Shown here: positions 33,644 to 42,177 of the stretch, in pieces
Layout: each line of letters begins with the position of its first letter
How positions within the stretch are numbered: the first letter of the stretch is position 1
Assembly (NCBI GenBank): GCA_964434285.1
Contig: CAYSUJ010000001.1
Location: forward strand, 104,703 to 168,702
Direction of reading: 5' to 3'
Length of the DNA stretch: 64,000 nt
Source of the DNA: an uncultured Candidatus Saccharibacteria bacterium
Lineage (GTDB): Bacteria > Patescibacteriota > Minisyncoccia > Phycocordibacterales > UBA2100
The notes under the pieces: model-generated
Databases searched by the model: none
What the model was told of the DNA's origin: nothing
Seen by the model: the letters and a program-made list of their open reading frames with translations, nothing else
Translations under genes and position numbers: made by a program

Positions 33644-34381
33644 CTAGGCATTGAGTGCCTGCGGGTGTTGTGCAGACCATGCTGCGAGTGCAACGCCGGC
33701 GGAAACGGATGCGTTTAAAGATTCTGCTCGTGGGTGCATGGAGATACGAAGCAAGATGTCACAGTGTTCACGAGTTTTTACGCGGAGTCCCTCCCCTTCG
33801 CTTCCAATTACAAATACGGCGGGTGTATCAAACTTCTCTTTCGAAAGTTCGTGATCCCCTTCGGCCGCGAGGCCGTACGACCAGAAATGTCGCTTCTTTA
33901 GATCGAGGATGGTTTGGTTTTCATTCCCAATAGCGACGAGTGGCACACTGAATACGGTGCCGGCCGACGCTTTTGCAACGACGCCGGTGACGCCAGCTTG
34001 ATTAAAGGTGGGAATGAGAACCCCGCTTGCACCGAAAGCCGCCGCAGAACGAATGATTGCGCCGACATTGTAGGGGTCCGTTATTTCGTTCAGAAGCACG
34101 AGTGCAGTATCCGGTGACGGCTCGAGCGAATCCATAAAAGCGACGTAGTCAACGAGGAGCTTGTCGAGAGACACTTTCGCGACAACACCTTGATGTACGA
34201 CTCCCTGCAGATCGCGCATGAATTGGTTCTTGGGCAGTTGTTCGGCGTGGACCCCTTTCTGTGTGGCAATCGGGCGGAACTGAGCCTCCGCTGACTGAGC
34301 CAGGTAGAGCGTATCAATACGTTCAGGAGCCCTTTCTAGAAGAGCCTCCACCGCATGAGTGCCATAAATATAATCGCGCAT
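33644..34381 (-). CDS. rlmB: SpoU/TrmH-family rRNA 2'-O-methyltransferase (RlmB-like)
   Basis: MRDYIYGTHAVEALLERAPERIDTLY N-terminus. SPOUT C-terminal motifs (GVLIPTFNQAGV, SLNASVSAGVALAAW). Confidence 0.8.
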   Translation of the reverse strand: MRDYIYGTHAVEALLERAPERIDTLYLAQSAEAQFRPIATQKGVHAEQLPKNQFMRDLQGVVHQGVVAKVSLDKLLVDYVAFMDSLEPSPDTALVLLNEITDPYNVGAIIRSAAAFGASGVLIPTFNQAGVTGVVAKASAGTVFSVPLVAIGNENQTILDLKKRHFWSYGLAAEGDHELSKEKFDTPAVFVIGSEGEGLRVKTREHCDILLRISMHPRAESLNASVSAGVALAAWSAQHPQALNA

Positions 34382-34446
34382 GCCGCAGTATACCCCCACA
34401 CCTTTCTGAAAAGAATGGTGGGGGGTATACGTAGGATTGGGAGACT

Positions 34447-36054
34447 TCAAAGCGGAAGCTCCACGACGAATTCAGAACCTTCACCTTGCCCCTTTGACTG
34501 TGCCCGAATAGTGCCCTGATGCGCCTCGGCGATCTGCTTGGCAATAAAAAGCCCATACCCTGTTGAATCAATATTCACTTTCGTCGATTCCTTACCGTGG
34601 CCGCCTTCCGTGAAGAGGCGTTGCATGTCTTCTTTGGTGATGCCGACGCCCGTGTCTTTCACCGAGAAACGTAGATGGTTGTCGGAGCGCGAAAGCGCGA
34701 CACGAATCTCGCCGTTTGGTGTGTAGTGAAGCGCGTTGTCTATCAGATTACGAACCACGTGGCGGCGAAGCTTCGCTTCGTCGCCCTCCATCATGTATGA
34801 ACCTGAGGCTGCCGAGAAAGAGAGGGCTATTTTTTTTGCCTCGGCTGCGGGAGTGAGGTCTTGCACCACCTGCTCCACCGACTTCCTGAAATCAAACGGT
34901 GCTTTCGTATAACTCACGGTACCCTTCCGCAGATTCGAAGCGTCGAGGATATCAGCGACCATGTCGACTCCTTTTCGAGCATCAATCACTGCATTATTTG
35001 CCATATGCTGCAATTCTGGCGTGATAGCACCATAATCACCTTGCGCAATCCCAGCGAACGCCGCCTGCCCCTTGGTGAGATATCCCTTCACTTCATGACT
35101 GATGAAGCGAAGGAGTCCTTCCTGCTGTTTGTTGATGTTTTCAAGGGCTTCTTCTTGGACTTCGATCTGTACACGCATCCGCATTTCTCTTTGAGAATTC
35201 GAATATAGAAGACCTCCGAGCGCCAGGACAACTCCAAAACTCATTGCTGCAAGGAAAAATTCTGTCAAATCGCCTACAAAAAAGAATTGTGTTCCGGCTA
35301 GAATTAAGAAAATGTAAAACAACAGCCGCGCTCTTGCATTTCCAATTTTGATCACATCATAGCTTGATATTGCAACAGTCAGGAAAAGCACGAAGACAGG
35401 AAGCGTAAAGAGGGAGTAAAGAGTCACTTCAAAAACCCCGGTCAGAGTCGAGTATCTCTCAGCTCCAGCAAATACGGCCATAAACATTAGAACAACTGTT
35501 GTTATGAGCACTAATCGCTTCGTCTCAGGTGAAGACAGGCCAGTCCGGAGGTATCTTTTGATTGCTAGGGCCAAAATGGCAACGCCAACCATCAGTTCTA
35601 TTGCAAGCTTGTATAGAGCAAGAAACTCATTACCTACCATCTCACATTGCGCGAGATCCATTTGATACACCGCATTACCCGTTATCGTCAAAGCAAAGGG
35701 CACGACGAGCGCTACAAGTGCAAAATAACTATAGATGCGTGGCATGATATTTGGATACGCCACACTCATGACGAATAGTCCGGCGAGTAGAATAAAGACG
35801 ATGTTTACCAGGTCAAGTGGCGCCCACGTTGCGGCGACGAGGCGGTGGTCGTGCGAGGTCCAGTTTGCTAGATCAAGGAGTAGCCAGAGTGAAAATGTTA
35901 CGGTAAATGCGAAAAAAGCACGTGTTTTAGTTTGACGATCCCCCATAAAAAAAGCGAAAACACCTAAAATGAGGACGGCGAGTGCAGGGATAAGATGTGC
36001 GTAAAGCGCGAGGGTTGCAAGAGGGATATTTCCGAGGCAAGCATTAATTTCCAT
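34447..36054 (-). CDS. Sensor histidine kinase with N-terminal ~7-TM sensor domain (orphan; no response regulator in window)
   Basis: HisKA H-box FISHEVKGYL. HATPase_c N, G1 and G2 boxes (DNALHYTPNGE...DTGVGI...GYGLFIAKQI). Confidence 0.8.
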   Translation of the reverse strand: MEINACLGNIPLATLALYAHLIPALAVLILGVFAFFMGDRQTKTRAFFAFTVTFSLWLLLDLANWTSHDHRLVAATWAPLDLVNIVFILLAGLFVMSVAYPNIMPRIYSYFALVALVVPFALTITGNAVYQMDLAQCEMVGNEFLALYKLAIELMVGVAILALAIKRYLRTGLSSPETKRLVLITTVVLMFMAVFAGAERYSTLTGVFEVTLYSLFTLPVFVLFLTVAISSYDVIKIGNARARLLFYIFLILAGTQFFFVGDLTEFFLAAMSFGVVLALGGLLYSNSQREMRMRVQIEVQEEALENINKQQEGLLRFISHEVKGYLTKGQAAFAGIAQGDYGAITPELQHMANNAVIDARKGVDMVADILDASNLRKGTVSYTKAPFDFRKSVEQVVQDLTPAAEAKKIALSFSAASGSYMMEGDEAKLRRHVVRNLIDNALHYTPNGEIRVALSRSDNHLRFSVKDTGVGITKEDMQRLFTEGGHGKESTKVNIDSTGYGLFIAKQIAEAHQGTIRAQSKGQGEGSEFVVELPL

Positions 36055-36388
36055 ACGTTGTGCAGGTATATGTGTCCTGAGATTGACACGAAATTTCTAC
36101 GCAGGCGAAAGAATCTGGACAATAGTGGTTGCAACTGTCACCCGTACACTGAAAGGCGTATGCGGGCACTTCATAGGCCGTGAAGAAGGATTGCTCATCT
36201 GAATCACAATCATCACATTCTTGAAAACAGACGCGTATATCAGGATCACACGACGCTCGAACGATTACTGGATAGTTCCCCATAAAGTAATACTTTGCGA
36301 AGGCCGCAATCAGCGCGCATCCCACACAAAATAGTAAGGCTAGTTGCGTAATCGTGGCGAGACTCGAACTCGTGCCACTAAAATTCAT
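36044..36388 (-). CDS. Membrane-anchored Cys-rich small protein (13 Cys in ~80 aa ectodomain)
   Basis: TM anchor LALLFCVGCALIAAF then CDPDIRVCFQECDDCDSDE...CTGDSCNHYCPDSFACVEISC. Its 3' end overlaps the HK start by 11 nt. Confidence 0.45.
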   Translation of the reverse strand: MNFSGTSSSLATITQLALLFCVGCALIAAFAKYYFMGNYPVIVRASCDPDIRVCFQECDDCDSDEQSFFTAYEVPAYAFQCTGDSCNHYCPDSFACVEISCQSQDTYTCTTYGN

Positions 36389-37215
36389 GCGCTTAGTATA
36401 TCAGCTCCCTGGGGGTGTCGTACTGTGTCTATCGTATGGGACGGGATTGCCTCAAGAATTGAGCTGGGGTAGCTATTCCAAAAGACTTCGCTCTCGCCAT
36501 TTTCGGGTACAAGGCGGGCGATCAGAGGTTTCTCGCCAAAAACTTCTGTCACAAATTTGTAAGCTGGTCGAACCACATCCTCATAAAATGAAATCTCTTC
36601 ATGATTCTTCATTGAATAATCCTCAAAATAGACCCCGTGCACTAGAAAGAGCGCCAGGAAGCGCTTATAGAGTGCCAGTGGATCTCTCCGCCCATTTCGA
36701 TTAATCCACTCAGCATCGTCATATAGGGAAACGCTTCGCCGCACCGTGCTCTCTAGAATTCTGTGGTGAAAAGAGACGAGAGACTCGCCCCAATACGTTT
36801 GCATATCTCCAAATGAGCGTCCTTGCATCGTATTTATATCGACAATGCTTTTATATTCATACTGCTCGTGAAGTGTGCCTGCCTTATTCGTTATCCTTTT
36901 ATGGATGGGTAGTTTGCATAATGCCTTTTTTACGACGTTCTGTGGAATGAATATGTCCTGTAGGTCTTCCGTCAACACAACGGGGAGACTAAGGGGTTCT
37001 GAAAGGCTTACAAATCGCAGCGTCTCAAAATTTGCCGATACTATGTACCTCGTAGCGCACATAAACAAACCTTGCCGCGCATACGTAGGTATATCGTTGC
37101 CTAAATACTCTTCAACCCTCCTCCTCAAGTCGTGATTATGAGCTCGTTTTCTAAGCTGCTCGACGGCTTGGAGGGGTGCGAGAACAATATCAGTTGTTGT
37201 GTTCATTGGAGTCAC
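36385..37215 (-). CDS. Hypothetical protein (276 aa), no recognised domain
   Basis: Intact 276-aa ORF. 4-nt overlap with the downstream Cys-rich protein gene. Confidence 0.45.
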   Translation of the reverse strand: MTPMNTTTDIVLAPLQAVEQLRKRAHNHDLRRRVEEYLGNDIPTYARQGLFMCATRYIVSANFETLRFVSLSEPLSLPVVLTEDLQDIFIPQNVVKKALCKLPIHKRITNKAGTLHEQYEYKSIVDINTMQGRSFGDMQTYWGESLVSFHHRILESTVRRSVSLYDDAEWINRNGRRDPLALYKRFLALFLVHGVYFEDYSMKNHEEISFYEDVVRPAYKFVTEVFGEKPLIARLVPENGESEVFWNSYPSSILEAIPSHTIDTVRHPQGADILSA

Positions 37216-37233
37216 ACATTTTTTCGTGTCAAA

Positions 37234-37725
37234 CTATCCCCGAGCGAACGCGAGGCCGAGGAATGCGCCAAGTAGCCAGAAGAGACGGTAAGGTTCTGCA
37301 AAAAGGCCTGTAAACGGCTCTCCGAGCGACCATAGCGCATTGAGGGAGGGAGTGTGTACCCACGTCAAAATAAGGACCGAGGAAACGGCCGTTGCGGCAA
37401 GAAGAGACTGGATAGGTTCTCCTCTTCCGCTCTCGAAATGTTCGAGTCCCATGCGTCGCATGAGCATGTAAATAATCACGAATAGCGCCACGAATAGGAC
37501 AATTGGACCACGACCCTGCGCGATAAATGCCTGATCCTTAATGAATGCCGTTATTGGGATGAGGGTAGAGAGAAATGCTGCAAATGGGAGCGCGACCGCA
37601 AGAGCGGTCGCGCGAGCGGTGCCGCTTCGGAGAGAGTCGAGGACAATGATTACGAAAAATCCGCCAAGGATAAACCAATGTATTGGAAATGAATTTAACA
37701 GACCCTGTGCGGCAGAAAAATCCAT
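37234..37725 (-). CDS. Hypothetical integral membrane protein (~164 aa, 4-5 TM)
   Basis: Start chosen at MDFSAAQ. The longer ORF would overlap the dnaJ 3' end. Confidence 0.4.
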   Translation of the reverse strand: MDFSAAQGLLNSFPIHWFILGGFFVIIVLDSLRSGTARATALAVALPFAAFLSTLIPITAFIKDQAFIAQGRGPIVLFVALFVIIYMLMRRMGLEHFESGRGEPIQSLLAATAVSSVLILTWVHTPSLNALWSLGEPFTGLFAEPYRLFWLLGAFLGLAFARG

Positions 37726-37744: not shown

Positions 37745-38812
37745 CTAGAGACCTTCTTTTTGCAGGGTTTCAATTGCTGCTTTAGCAGCACGCGAGAGCT
37801 TCTTCGGAAATTCAATGTCAACGCGCACTAATAGATCGCCTCGATTTCCTCTACCATACGGCACGCCCTTGCCGCGCAAGCGGATGAGTTCACCATGAGT
37901 GACACCGGCGGGAATATCGATTTTGGTATCTCCCTCCAATGTGTTGAGGTTGTGCTCACCTCCGAGCAATGCCTCAGTTAGCTTAACCGAAAGTGCTGTT
38001 ACCAGATTGTTGCCCTCGCGCGCGAATAAGCGGTCTGGTTTTACGTGTACTTTCACATAAAGATCACCCGCAGGAGCGCCTGTCGCAGCTTCACCGCGTC
38101 CCGGCATCCGAATCATTTCGCCGTTTTCCATGCCCGCGGGTATAACCACGTGCACTTCTTCTTGCCGCTTAAGAACTCCTTCACCGCGACATACACTACA
38201 GTGTTCCTTGGGTACGTCCCCTCTTCCTTTGCAGGTCGGACAAGTGCGCGTTGAGGTGAAGGTGCCGAAGAATGTGCTCCGGGCCTCCTTCATGCTTCCC
38301 TTCCCCGCACACGCGCCACACTGCGTCATGCCTGCACCTTTCTTCGCGCCCGTACCTTCGCAGGTTTCGCATGCGCCGAGCTTCGTGATGAGCACCCGAC
38401 GCTCTGAACCGAATATTGCATCCTTGAAGGGGAGTTCGACGTCTATAGAAATGTCACGCCCTCTACGAGCGCGAGACTGGCCCCCGTTGAACACATCGCC
38501 AAAAATATCGCCAAGGTCAAATTCGAACGCCTGACCATTCTGAAAACCTTGAAAACCAGAAAAATCAAAGCCACCGAAGCCTTGCCCGAATGGGTTACCA
38601 CCGCCTGCTTGATACTGGCCAAATTGATCGTATTGCGCGCGCTTCTGTTTGTCGGAGAGCACCGCATACGCCTCGCTCACCTCCTTAAACTTCGCCTCGT
38701 CTCCCCCCTTCTTGTCGGGATGATACTTGTGCGCAAGAGAGCGGAACGCTTTCTTTATTTCGTCTTCACTTGCACTTTTTGCAACGCCGAGAATGGAATA
38801 GTAATCCTTCAT
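37745..38812 (-). CDS. dnaJ: Molecular chaperone DnaJ
   Basis: J-domain with HPD (KYHPDKKGG), G/F-rich linker, four CxxCxGxG zinc-finger repeats. Confidence 0.95.
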
Positions 38813-38861: not shown

Positions 38862-40709
38862 CTAAGAGTTTTGAGTACCTTCTTCGGGCGGTTTCTGCTC
38901 AGAGGTTGATTGTTTCTGCATCGCTTCTCCGATAGCACTCATCGCACTTGAGACCGCCTCTGAAGCTGAACTGATAGTAGTAACATCTGTTCCAGTGCGC
39001 GCATTTTTGAGTGCATCGATTTTTTCCTGCACATTCTTGCGGATATCCTCACTCACTTTCTCTCCATGGTCTTTGAGGGCCTTTTCGGCTGCATAGACCG
39101 TATGGTCCGCAGCATTTTGTGCCTCGATAAGTTCGCGCTTCTGTTTGTCGCTCTCGGCGTTAGCCTCTGCTTCTGCGCGCATCTTTTCAATATCAGTGTC
39201 AGTAAGCCCTGAACGCTGCTCAATGCGTATGGACTGCTCTTTTCCGCTCGTCTTATCTTTTGCTTTCACCGAGAGGATTCCGTTCGCATCGATGTCGAAG
39301 GTAACCTCAACCTGCGGTGTACCGCGCGGAGCCGGTGGAATGCCATCGAGATTAAACTTTCCGAGCGATTTATTATCCGCAGCCATCGGGCGTTCACCCT
39401 GTACCACATGGATCTCTACCGACGGCTGATTGTCTGCGGCGGTGGAAAATACTTGAGATTTTGAGGTTGGAATTGTGGTATTCCGCTCGATAAGCTTGGT
39501 TGCAACGCCGCCCAAAGTCTCAATCCCGAGTGAAAGTGGAATGACGTCAAGAAGAAGCACGTCTTTCACATCGCCTTGGAGGATTCCTCCCTGAATTGCA
39601 GCACCGAGTGCTACAACTTCGTCCGGATTTACGCTCATGTTTGGCTTCTTGCCAAAGAATTTCTCCACAGCGCCCTGGATAGCAGGCATACGTGTCTGAC
39701 CACCGACAAGAATCACTTCGTTGATATCGCCGACTTTGAAGGGAGATGCCTCCATTGCGCGCTTGGTGATTTCCATTGCACGCGTGACAAACTCTTCAGT
39801 GAGCTCTTCGAGCTTCGCCCGCGAGAGTTTCAGGAGAAGGTGACGTGGGCCTGAAGCATCAGACGTGATGAAAGGAATGTTGATTTCTGTTTCCACTGCG
39901 CTTGAGAGTTCAATCTTTGCCTTTTCTGCGGCTTCATCGAGACGTTGGCGCGCGAGAGGATCCTTACGGACGTCGATACCGCTCTCTTTCAAGAATTCCT
40001 CGGCGATCCAATTGATGATCTTCTGGTCAAGATCCTTGCCCCCGAGGTGCGCGTCGCCGTCTGTTGAGCGGACCTCAATCACATCGTCCCCCACCTCAAG
40101 AACAGAAACGTCGAAGGTACCGCCGCCGAAGTCGAACACTGCGATTTTCTCGTTTTTCTTCTTATTAAATCCGTAGGCAAGCGCTGCTGCTGTCGGCTCG
40201 TTGATAATGCGCTTCACTTCAAGACCCGCGATCTTTCCCGCGTCTTTAGTCGCGGCGCGTTGTGCGTCGTTGAAATATGCTGGCACGGTGATAACCGCCT
40301 CAGTGATGGTTTCGCCCAAGCGCGCTTCCGCATCTCGTTTCAGTTTCTGGAGGATCATCGCGGAAATCTCCTCAGGAGAGTGCCATGAATCTCCCATCTG
40401 CACCTCGATACCGCCGTTCTGCGATTTACGCATTTCAAAAGGCACTGCAGCCTTGTCTTTCTGGACATTGGCCTCATCGAACGTGTGACCAATGAAGCGC
40501 TTTATCTGATAAATCGTGTTCTTGGGGTTCGTGACCGCCTGGCGCTTAGCGAGGAGACCGACGGAGCGTTCGTTGGTTTTAGAGAGTGCGACGATAGAAG
40601 GAGTGGTGCGTGCGCCTTCTGCGTTCTCAAGGATGACGGGTTCACCGCCTTGCACCACAGCCATGGCCGAATTAGTAGTTCCGAGATCAATTCCGAGTAT
40701 TTTTGCCAT
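38862..40709 (-). CDS. dnaK: Molecular chaperone DnaK (Hsp70)
   Basis: [18 protein letters not shown]..., [10 protein letters not shown]. The ORF-track N-terminal extension is translation of the upstream REP palindrome. Confidence 0.95.
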
Positions 40710-40761
40710 ACTTTTCCATTTTACGAGTAATTTTTTGCTAATTATATTCCCGTCTTTGATT

Positions 40762-40784
40762 TTGGCAAGGTCTGACCTTGCCAA
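40762..40784. repeat. REP-like perfect palindrome TTGGCAAGGTCtGACCTTGCCAA (copy 1)
   Basis: 23-nt palindrome immediately downstream of the RAYT stop and ~50 nt upstream of the dnaK start. Confidence 0.7.
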
Positions 40785-40793
40785 ACCGCTATC

Positions 40794-41504
40794 TCACCCC
40801 AGCCAAAGCTCTTTAGAGAGCTTTTTTTCAAGACTACCCTCCGCAACTTCCTGCGCAAACTCTCGAAATCCCTGACGATCACCAAAAATTTCTCGAAGAA
40901 GATCGCTATCAAGGAGTCCGGAGGCCCGCGCACCTGTGTACGAGCCAAGACTTGAAAAAGGATCTTGAAGTGCCCAGTCAAACGCATTATCAAACTCATT
41001 CATCGCCTTACGATAACCACCTGGGTATCGTTCCAGCGGGTTCTTGACTTGAATATACGCCGCAAGATATTCAAGATATTCATCTGAATCCACGGTGCGC
41101 GATCGATATGCGCCCTGAAAGATGGTGCCGCGCTCATTGTATTTCGTATTGAAGTACATAGACATGCTTGTGCAAAGTTTTTGCATAAATTTGCTGACAC
41201 CCCCTTCGCGAGTCTCTTGCACCAGCAGATGAAAATGGTTATCCATAAGGCAATACGCAAGTATGGCGGTATAAGGCTTTTGTTCCCCCCAAGAATCCGG
41301 GCGCTTAAAACCCTCTCTTATATGCTGGGGGGTAATATCTCGGTCCCAATGTTGAGGAGCGTTTTCGTCGTTCAGATAACGTAAGAGACGTAGAAAGCGC
41401 CATTTATCGGATTCATCACGAACGATGTTCATACCTCGCGCACCGCGCTTAACGATGTGTACATATGAACCCACGGTAAATGGCTCCTTCCTCATTTGAC
41501 GCAT
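40794..41504 (-). CDS. REP-associated tyrosine transposase (RAYT; IS200/IS605-like Y1 HUH transposase)
   Basis: HUH motif YCLMDNHFHLLVQE. Catalytic Tyr region EYLAAYIQVKNPLE. Perfect SD AAGGAG 6 nt upstream of the ATG at 41502-41504. Flanked by inverted copies of the same palindrome. Confidence 0.75.
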   Translation of the reverse strand: MRQMRKEPFTVGSYVHIVKRGARGMNIVRDESDKWRFLRLLRYLNDENAPQHWDRDITPQHIREGFKRPDSWGEQKPYTAILAYCLMDNHFHLLVQETREGGVSKFMQKLCTSMSMYFNTKYNERGTIFQGAYRSRTVDSDEYLEYLAAYIQVKNPLERYPGGYRKAMNEFDNAFDWALQDPFSSLGSYTGARASGLLDSDLLREIFGDRQGFREFAQEVAEGSLEKKLSKELWLG

Positions 41505-41523
41505 ATTATCTCCTTTCATGTGC

Positions 41524-41546
41524 TTGGCAAGGTCAGACCTTGCCAA
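41524..41546. repeat. REP-like perfect palindrome TTGGCAAGGTCaGACCTTGCCAA (copy 2)
   Basis: Same palindrome as copy 1 in inverted orientation. Confidence 0.7.
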
Positions 41547-41550
41547 AACG

Positions 41551-41627
41551 ATCGACCAGATCGACCAGACCAGACCAAATCAGATGGACCGAACCAACTG
41601 CAACTTGATCAACCGGATCGACCAAAA
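41551..41627. repeat. Degenerate A/C-rich tandem repeats built on GACCA/GATCGACCA
   Basis: atcGACCAGatcGACCAGaccaGACCAaatcagatgGACCgaaccaa...ggatcGACCAaaac, between REP copy 2 and the grpE stop. Confidence 0.45.
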
Positions 41628-42158
41628 CTACGCACCAACGACGACTTGTGCTGGGCGGAGTATGCGGTTACCCGAGCAATATCCGCGGCGGATGATACGT
41701 ACGATCACGCCCGCCTCCCCTTCTGCTTCTTGTATAGCCTCGTGAATGTTCGCATCAAACACCTCTCCGCTTTTGCCGAATGCTGAAATGCCGTGAGATT
41801 CGAGGACTGAGAGGAGTTGTGCATGAATGCCCTCCACTCCAGAACGCCACACTGGGTCAACCGTGCCCCAAGCTTCTCCCTGCATTGCCATATCAAAACT
41901 GTCGAGCGCAGGGATGAGTTCTTCTACGAACGATTCCTTACCAAATGCGCGCGCGCGAATAAGCGCATCAGTCAATTCTTTTTTCGCGTTCACTGTGTCA
42001 GCTTTACAGCGCTGCCAGCCATCCAAGTATTCATCTCGTTCTCTTTTAATCACCGAGAGTTCGTCGCGAAGTTTCGAAAGTTTTGCTTTTGCAGAGCCAA
42101 TATCCCCGAATTCATCTTCGGGTTCGAAATCGAATTCCACATCGGGGACGGCACACAT
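41628..42158 (-). CDS. grpE: Nucleotide exchange factor GrpE
   Basis: Coiled-coil N-terminus (LSKLRDELSVIKRERDEYLDGWQRCKAD). C-terminal GrpE beta-domain (GEVFDANIHEAIQEAEGEAGVIVRIIRRGY). Confidence 0.85.
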   Translation of the reverse strand: MCAVPDVEFDFEPEDEFGDIGSAKAKLSKLRDELSVIKRERDEYLDGWQRCKADTVNAKKELTDALIRARAFGKESFVEELIPALDSFDMAMQGEAWGTVDPVWRSGVEGIHAQLLSVLESHGISAFGKSGEVFDANIHEAIQEAEGEAGVIVRIIRRGYCSGNRILRPAQVVVGA

Positions 42159-42177
42159 ACGGAGCGAGTATAGCACT

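Follow-up and report, generated by a model that had tools for sequence, protein, structure and literature searches.

A nine-helix sensor histidine kinase, a cysteine-rich membrane protein, and an enzyme-like protein encoded by a conserved three-gene module of Paceibacterota/Kaiserbacteria-type bacteria

We analyzed a 64,000-nucleotide stretch of DNA (the window; G+C content, ~52%) from an assembly of an uncultured Candidatus Saccharibacteria bacterium (GenBank assembly GCA_964434285.1, contig CAYSUJ010000001.1, positions 104,703 to 168,702). Three consecutive minus-strand genes of this window encode a 276-amino-acid (aa) enzyme-like protein (U276), a membrane-anchored cysteine-rich protein (CYS), and a sensor histidine kinase (HK) (Table 1), and together they form a three-gene module that is conserved in Paceibacterota/Kaiserbacteria-type bacteria of the candidate phyla radiation (CPR). 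We interpret the module as a recurrent sensory unit of one large CPR lineage, in which U276 and CYS have no relatives in Pfam, NCBIfam, or PDB and the sensor of the kinase is barely linked to HisKA_7TM. Sensor kinases that work with accessory membrane proteins are already known; what is new is a combination that recurs across CPR bacteria, in which a sensor with nine predicted helices and an invariant pair of extracellular Cys residues occurs together with a putative 10-Cys co-receptor family and an enzyme-like family of ~790 clusters. Full-text searches of the literature found no description of the U276-CYS-HK module, and the literature covered says almost nothing on how CPR bacteria transduce signals. 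A previous reading of the window from its letters alone (the sequence-only reading) had proposed a Cys-rich protein as a possible co-sensor of a kinase. This core idea survives, and two features described below were absent from that reading, namely, the invariant extracellular Cys pair of HK and the association of the module with EamA, SET, and AdoMet decarboxylase genes.

Relatives of the locus were found in metagenome-assembled genomes labelled Candidatus Kaiserbacteria, Candidatus Paceibacterota, and in some cases Saccharibacteria, as well as on one 3-kb contig binned as Burkholderiaceae. Both the order of genes in the window and its G+C content are consistent with a Kaiserbacteria-like CPR genome. 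A kinase of the same type was encoded downstream of U276 on the same strand in all 20 U276 relatives with enough flanking sequence (i.e., 15 of 15, plus the more distant loci L090 to L094), which bears out the earlier inclusion of the unknown 276-aa protein in the unit; at locus L011, 6.9 kb separate U276 from the kinase gene that follows it. A metagenome scan seeded with CYS yielded 73 loci, and linkage was counted on the 31 close-subfamily CYS genes with at least 300 nt of downstream sequence. The HK sensor gene was directly 3' of CYS in 29 of these 31 genes, and a SET gene intervened in one more. Among 33 distinct systems, the CYS-HK junction was a 4-nt overlap in 18 and an 11-nt overlap in 2 (20 of 33 in total), nearly all of the others being gaps of 2 to 9 nt; the outliers were one 30-nt gap and one value of -70 that was a start-call artefact. 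These counts bear out the coupling of the Cys-rich protein to the kinase that the sequence-only reading had put forward, here at the level of the kinase family.

The three open reading frames (ORFs) of the module in the window are conserved genes and not chance ORFs. Four minus-strand genes joined by overlaps of 4 to 11 nt had been described here; the four ORFs stand, and only two junctions overlap, i.e., U276-CYS (4 nt) and CYS-HK (11 nt; ATGGAAATTAA), the latter exactly as described, while the gene for a membrane protein preceding U276 (MEM) is separated from U276 by a gap of 18 to 27 nt. U276 would be 273 aa long if begun at the ATG at 37206, as in homolog P0001. The trio or pairs of its genes keep recurring in unrelated contexts at 20 to 45% identity, and the module stands beside dnaK and dnaJ only in a Kaiserbacteria-like clade, with other surroundings in other lineages. 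Gene order also varies (i.e., U276-HK-response regulator-CYS at L058, CYS-U276-SET-HK at L078, and EamA-CYS-HK at many loci).

The ATPase domain of HK was recognized readily. Residues 425 to 535 matched HATPase_c (PF02518) at an E value of 2e-25, residues 293 to 535 aligned to the kinase cores of many histidine kinase family models, and the N/G1/G2 box residues N436, N440, D467, G469, G471, G499, and G501 were invariant in 14 relatives. The window HK had no match to Pfam HisKA even at an E value of ≤1; this model was matched by 2 of the 14 relatives (E value, 3.9e-17), both with the canonical H-box SHQLRSPLT, and the H-box of the window protein is divergent enough to escape it. The polypeptide terminates with HATPase_c at residue 535 and has no C-terminal receiver domain. 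PADLOC matched only the ATPase core of HK, the exact HK sequence is not on record, and a word-indexed search with the sensor alignment retrieved at least 20 homologs.

Hydropathy analysis identified nine hydrophobic segments in the HK sensor, and an AlphaFold2 (AF2) model (pLDDT, 78; pTM, 0.78) consisted of nine long helices, in place of the ~7 transmembrane (TM) segments assumed in the sequence-only reading. With 14 Lys and Arg residues inside and 2 outside, the charge distribution is consistent with an N terminus that lies outside. Because the outward loops are predicted to be no longer than 18 residues, HK itself would offer little sensing surface. Pfam HisKA_7TM was touched weakly by 1 of the 14 relatives (E value, 6.4e-4), the remaining 13 and the window HK having no match, and a Foldseek search with the sensor model returned only generic 7TM or G protein-coupled receptor-type bundles (TM score, 0.4 to 0.5; E value, ≥0.02).

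The sensor family carries a signature of its own, consisting of a YYSHIP motif and two Cys residues, Cys6 in the N-terminal tail and Cys137 in the TM4-TM5 loop, where the AF2 model contains a predicted beta-hairpin (residues 129 to 141). Both Cys residues are predicted to be extracellular. The N-terminal Cys and the loop Cys were both present in 45 of 45 distinct kinase-bearing sensors, and both were gone from seven kinase-less paralogs (at L086 and L089), in which the loop Cys is replaced by G, A, or V. At L086 (5001-10386), six sensor-only paralogs of ~278 aa each are arranged in tandem after a CYS-family gene; they have eight helices, end after helix 8, and lack both the kinase and the Cys pair. 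L089 carries one such copy. The membrane domain of HK thus also occurs as a stand-alone, amplified protein. In one HK clade, the extracellular N-terminal tail is longer (...C.DS.P...LDPSIAP...), and the CYS gene is missing there or, as at L007, L012, and L014, replaced.

CYS contains 12 Cys residues (13 had been counted previously), of which 2 lie in the N-terminal membrane anchor (aa 13 to 31), its single TM segment, and 10 lie in the 83-residue ectodomain. Among homologs of 20 to 75% identity, eight Cys residues were invariant and the N-terminal anchor was kept, and a juxtamembrane stretch (...YYRF..DY.V...) was also conserved. In a positive-inside analysis of the family, in which the typical N terminus is MDKKSK, the net charge was +1.4 for the N-terminal flank and -0.97 for the C-terminal flank, and an N-in/C-out orientation was favored in 44 versus 15 sequences. 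On this charge bias, the Cys-rich domain is predicted at the family level to be outside the cell, as the sequence-only reading had supposed. Cys spacing differs among relatives (C-x2-C in some and C-x4-C in others, with insertions), which fits disulfides better than metal knuckles, and we infer that the ectodomain is disulfide rich. CYS had no match in Pfam, NCBIfam, or PADLOC and hence no YycH/YycI domain, and a search of PDB sequences with its family profile (A5) found no relative. A word search with the single CYS sequence found only three near-identical proteins, and a Pfam scan of 10 long CYS-family proteins gave nothing useful.

U276 belongs to a much larger family than a rapid search suggests: a word-indexed search found 8 homologs, versus 787 representative clusters (50% identity) at an E value of ≤1e-3 and 288 at ≤1e-30 in an exhaustive HMMER profile search. 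The sole annotation in a cluster look-up was "hypothetical protein, Candidatus Paceibacterota." U276 had no match in Pfam, NCBIfam, or PADLOC, and a Pfam scan of 66 diverse members at an E value of ≤0.5 gave only scattered single matches, with a family model for none of them. Searches of PDB sequences with the U276 profiles (A1 and A3) returned nothing better than a match to ITPK1 across 40 residues (E value, ~0.06), which was dismissed as chance. An AF2 model (pLDDT, 81; pTM, 0.80) showed an alpha/beta fold, for which Foldseek found nothing at an E value of ≤1e-3, the best matches being HUP-class nucleotide-binding enzymes (e.g., pantothenate synthetase; TM score, 0.3 to 0.37), a weak lead. 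We judged U276 to be enzyme-like because H150 is invariant and ~18 further positions are nearly so. The protein is fused to a C-terminal SET domain in P0070, P0091, P0102, and P0132, to an N-terminal GNAT domain in P0069, P0107, and P0128, and to an N-terminal multi-TM domain in two relatives (L093, 348-1796; L094, 665-2158). Since fusions of all three kinds occur, they suggest a membrane-proximal enzyme that acts with methyl- or acyltransferases.

On the basis of these features, we propose, with moderate confidence, that CYS is a stoichiometric extracellular co-sensor of HK, that U276 is its membrane-proximal cytoplasmic partner, and that output passes through a receiver encoded elsewhere. 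The HK sensor would be a nine-helix bundle, in which a helical hairpin is added to a 7TM-like core, with its N terminus outside and hardly any exposed loops. CYS, anchored in type II orientation, would be produced in a fixed ratio to HK through translational coupling. It may dock on HK via its anchor and juxtamembrane stretch, supply the extracellular sensing surface of the kinase for oxidants, metals, or another ligand, and alter autophosphorylation at His320; redox or metal sensing is a plausible role. U276 would act as an enzyme-like cytoplasmic partner of HK with a chemistry tied to enzymes that use S-adenosylmethionine (SAM). Phosphate would then pass to a receiver protein encoded elsewhere in the genome. 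In four relatives, a receiver gene is close to the kinase: a single-receiver gene follows HK at L030/L033 and L058, a gene with two receiver domains follows it at L093, and an OmpR-type response regulator gene lies two genes upstream of U276 at L007. Most other module loci have no receiver gene within 5 to 10 kb.

Several findings weigh against the co-sensor proposal. CYS is not obligatory, about one-third of the U276-seeded module loci being without it or having a substitute: it is absent from L005, L008, L009, and L093, and at L007 (10821-11024), L012 (10704-10952), and L014 (10789-10941) a short anchored ORF lacking Cys stands in for it, the L007 replacement having a strongly acidic tail. 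More distant CYS-family proteins (180 to 341 aa) are mostly without a kinase. The HK Cys pair is kept with or without CYS and, because it is retained irrespective of CYS, may be purely structural. Although variable Cys spacing suits disulfides, CYS could yet bind metal, and anoxic water is the habitat of many CPR bacteria. The data show gene content, conservation, linkage, predicted topology, and the Cys signatures; the proposed physical CYS-HK interaction is deduced from genetic linkage and translational coupling, and the nature of the signal and the roles of U276 and of a response regulator are likewise proposals. No receiver domain was detected when four receiver-domain queries were run against all six reading frames of the 64 kb (best E value, 0.16), in agreement with the earlier statement that no response regulator is encoded nearby. 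Finally, recurrent EamA, AdoMet decarboxylase, and SET neighbors point to small-molecule chemistry that the co-sensor proposal leaves unexplained.

These neighbors can instead be read as parts of a small-molecule circuit of the autoinducer or polyamine type, in which U276 and SAM/polyamine enzymes make a compound, EamA transports it, the HK bundle binds it, and CYS is accessory, the window holding a reduced version; we regard this as possible though doubtful. An EamA transporter gene immediately preceded CYS in 19 of 62 loci, and most module loci contained one; at L002, a 55%-identical relative of the window locus, it lies between U276 and CYS. SET-domain genes occur between CYS or U276 and HK in several loci. 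AdoMet decarboxylase genes were present in 13 loci, LPG_synthase_C-like genes in 12, and saccharopine-dehydrogenase-family (homospermidine-synthase-like) genes in 4. At L039 (2670-7021), the order AdoMet decarboxylase-U276-EamA-CYS-HK is uninterrupted, and a GNAT::U276 fusion lies one gene from an AdoMet decarboxylase-spermidine synthase fusion. The SET and GNAT fusions and the enzyme-like invariant residues of U276 favor the same reading. There is also a precedent in LuxN, which has nine predicted helices and binds its ligand between helices 4 and 7, and in CqsS, which detects the product of the SAM-using synthase CqsA (PMC5007282). However, the 64-kb window contains no EamA, AdoMet decarboxylase, or SET gene, U276 has no significant fold or family match, and the links are by neighborhood only, each in a minority of loci. 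A small-molecule circuit also leaves the tight translational coupling of CYS and HK and the conserved extracellular Cys residues unexplained. Polyamine-related or LPG_synthase_C-like genes near the module or near CYS-family genes were recorded at L039 (within the range given above), L030 (2614-7547), L090 (18-8468), L012 (7362-8783), and L049/L051/L053, and none were present in the window. A broader version would have U276, together with SAM decarboxylase, SET, or GNAT enzymes, make or modify a SAM- or polyamine-derived compound that EamA moves and that the nine-helix kinase and a disulfide-rich co-receptor detect, as CPR-specific surface signaling. We consider this version unlikely; if true, it would amount to quorum-sensing-like or host-sensing behavior in episymbiotic ultra-small bacteria, with three new core families.

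The Cys pair itself allows another explanation, in which HK senses oxidants directly by a thiol switch of Cys6 and Cys137, with CYS not as the sensor but as a substrate or redox buffer or as a surface protein unrelated to it. The strict presence of the pair in kinase-bearing sensors and its loss from kinase-less paralogs, its predicted extracellular position, and its retention in loci without CYS are consistent with such a switch. A structural disulfide predicts an invariant pair equally well, however, and a large clade in which CYS and HK are strictly coupled suggests that CYS matters to HK; direct thiol sensing seems decidedly unlikely. If the Cys-rich domain were instead cytoplasmic, it could bind zinc or an iron-sulfur cluster as a ZAS-/anti-sigma-like or Fe-S redox module on the inner side of HK. 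The window protein has no Lys or Arg before the anchor and two after it, and eight invariant Cys residues could hold metal clusters, but the family charge bias favors the opposite orientation, and variable spacing with insertions is what disulfide-rich domains typically show and metal knuckles do not. This arrangement was largely rejected on those two grounds, and we see it as very improbable. Just as improbable is that the module is no functional unit at all, i.e., that CYS and U276 are independent genes brought beside a housekeeping kinase by the compact, codirectional gene order of CPR genomes. CPR genes are packed tightly and often overlap, and the clade of the window keeps the entire gene order from dnaK through ScpA. 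A promoter and terminator scan performed no better than on shuffled sequence, so that operon limits could not be defined in this way and no separate unit was visible. Against simple adjacency stand the recurrence of the trio or its pairs in unrelated contexts, in shuffled orders and at low identity, and the U276 fusions. If either the co-sensor proposal or the small-molecule circuit is right, the module would give a first handle on how CPR organisms sense their surroundings; at minimum, the module holds three families that merit curated models.

Known kinases with small membrane partners offer partial likenesses to the module. MgrB modulates PhoQ and depends for this on periplasmic redox state via two periplasmic Cys residues, and mgrB belongs to the PhoQ/PhoP regulon, whereas the CYS gene overlaps the kinase gene (PMC8404706 for MgrB). 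Like MgrB, CYS is a single-pass membrane protein with conserved Cys residues, extracytoplasmic by prediction in the case of CYS, beside a sensor kinase. The two differ in size (MgrB, 47 aa with 2 Cys; CYS, 114 aa with a 10-Cys ectodomain), and no sequence similarity between them was found with Pfam, NCBIfam, or PDB sequences. PhoQ combines a periplasmic domain with two TM helices, whereas nine helices and no domain of this kind are predicted for HK. WalK, in turn, has YycH and YycI as accessory membrane proteins (PMC7355866). CYS shows no homology to them, being without any Pfam match; its gene precedes the kinase gene, whereas those of YycH and YycI follow, and WalR adjoins WalK, whereas no response regulator gene is beside HK. 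YycH and YycI have N-terminal anchors and extracytoplasmic domains and are not Cys rich, and their kinase, WalK, carries PAS and HAMP domains in addition to two TM helices.

The likeness to LuxN and CqsS is one of architecture only: the HK sensor is a polytopic helical bundle alone, with nine predicted helices, as in LuxN, and no separate extracellular domain. No sequence relationship was found, NCBIfam LuxQ and other histidine kinase models matching the catalytic core only. The Vibrio systems are not known to have a Cys-rich partner or a conserved extracellular Cys pair. The enzyme-like U276 is always linked to the kinase, but no profile recognized it as a synthase of the LuxM, LuxI, or CqsA type. 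Both LuxN and CqsS, as hybrid kinases, include a receiver domain, which HK lacks. HisKA_7TM (PF16927) proteins likewise join a polytopic membrane sensor directly to a kinase core, and HK differs from them in its nine predicted helices (versus seven) and in its own signature of the extracellular Cys pair and YYSHIP. Kinases of the BceS-BceAB and LiaS-LiaF type have minimal extracellular loops and perceive the stimulus via a co-encoded membrane partner; each has two TM helices and works with an ABC transporter or a LiaF-type protein. By contrast, HK has nine predicted helices and, as its proposed partner, a bitopic protein that is probably disulfide rich.

The neighborhood of the module is summarized in Table 1. 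The module is transcribed 3' of dnaK and dnaJ, i.e., downstream of them in the direction of transcription and not upstream, as had been stated. A membrane protein of 164 aa had also been counted as part of the unit. This protein, MEM, has 163 aa, and its homologs were found only directly after dnaJ, in the window and at L001, L002 (6607-7098), L004 (3961-4452), and L005 (7825-8316); MEM is absent from all other module loci. At L005, a gene on the opposite strand parts the MEM homolog from U276. We excluded MEM from the module because its homologs only follow dnaJ and because of this separation. MEM had no match in Pfam, NCBIfam, or PADLOC, and it may be a chaperone-associated membrane protein of Kaiserbacteria-like genomes.

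Table 1 Coordinates of the module and of neighboring features in the window
Feature	Position	Strand	Description
grpE	41628-42176	minus	
Y1/REP-type transposase gene	40794-41546	minus	Between grpE and dnaK
dnaK	38862-40784	minus	
dnaJ	37745-38812	minus	
MEM	37234-37725	minus	Membrane protein, 163 aa; four hydrophobic segments; neighbor, outside module
U276	36385-37215	minus	276 aa, GTG start; soluble enzyme-like alpha/beta protein; stop overlaps CYS start (4 nt)
CYS	36044-36388	minus	114-aa bitopic protein; N-terminal anchor and Cys-rich ectodomain
CYS ectodomain (aa 32-114)	36047-36295	minus	10 Cys; C-D-P-x4-C-F-x2/3-C ... C-x4-C-x3-C-x5-C-x4-C (alignments A2, A5)
HK	34447-36054	minus	Sensor histidine kinase, 535 aa; predicted nine-helix membrane sensor, putative dimerization and histidine phosphotransfer (DHp) domain, and HATPase_c core
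HK membrane sensor domain (aa 1-295)	35170-36054	minus	Nine predicted TM helices, N terminus outside, short loops
HK Cys6 codon	36037-36039	minus	Predicted extracellular N-terminal tail; Cys before TM1, often MIC- in relatives
HK Cys137 codon	35644-35646	minus	Predicted extracellular TM4-TM5 loop; inside predicted beta-hairpin
HK His320 codon	35095-35097	minus	Predicted phospho-acceptor; H-box FISHEVKGYL; invariant in alignment A4 (14 relatives)
RlmB, TrpRS, AspRS, and ScpA genes			After HK in minus-strand order

Downstream of HK, the longest ORF of RlmB (33644-34450) has a TTG start, with an overlap of 4 nt with the stop of HK. Since RlmB relatives are called at 244 to 246 aa, the true start is probably an internal ATG near 34381, which would leave a gap of ~65 nt after HK.

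Two perfectly complementary 25-nt repeats (40760-40784 and 41524-41548) bracket the gene for the Y1/REP-associated tyrosine transposase. Each copy is a hairpin in itself (TTGGCAAGGTCWGACCTTGCCAA), and for this reason the repeats look like REP elements. The best promoter-like site of the region (TTGCCA, 16 nt, TATAAT; 11 of 12 positions matching) lies in the repeat copy upstream of dnaK. Two clusters of tandem 9-nt repeats (GATCGACCA and variants) occupy positions 41550-41633, in the stretch that separates grpE from the transposase gene.

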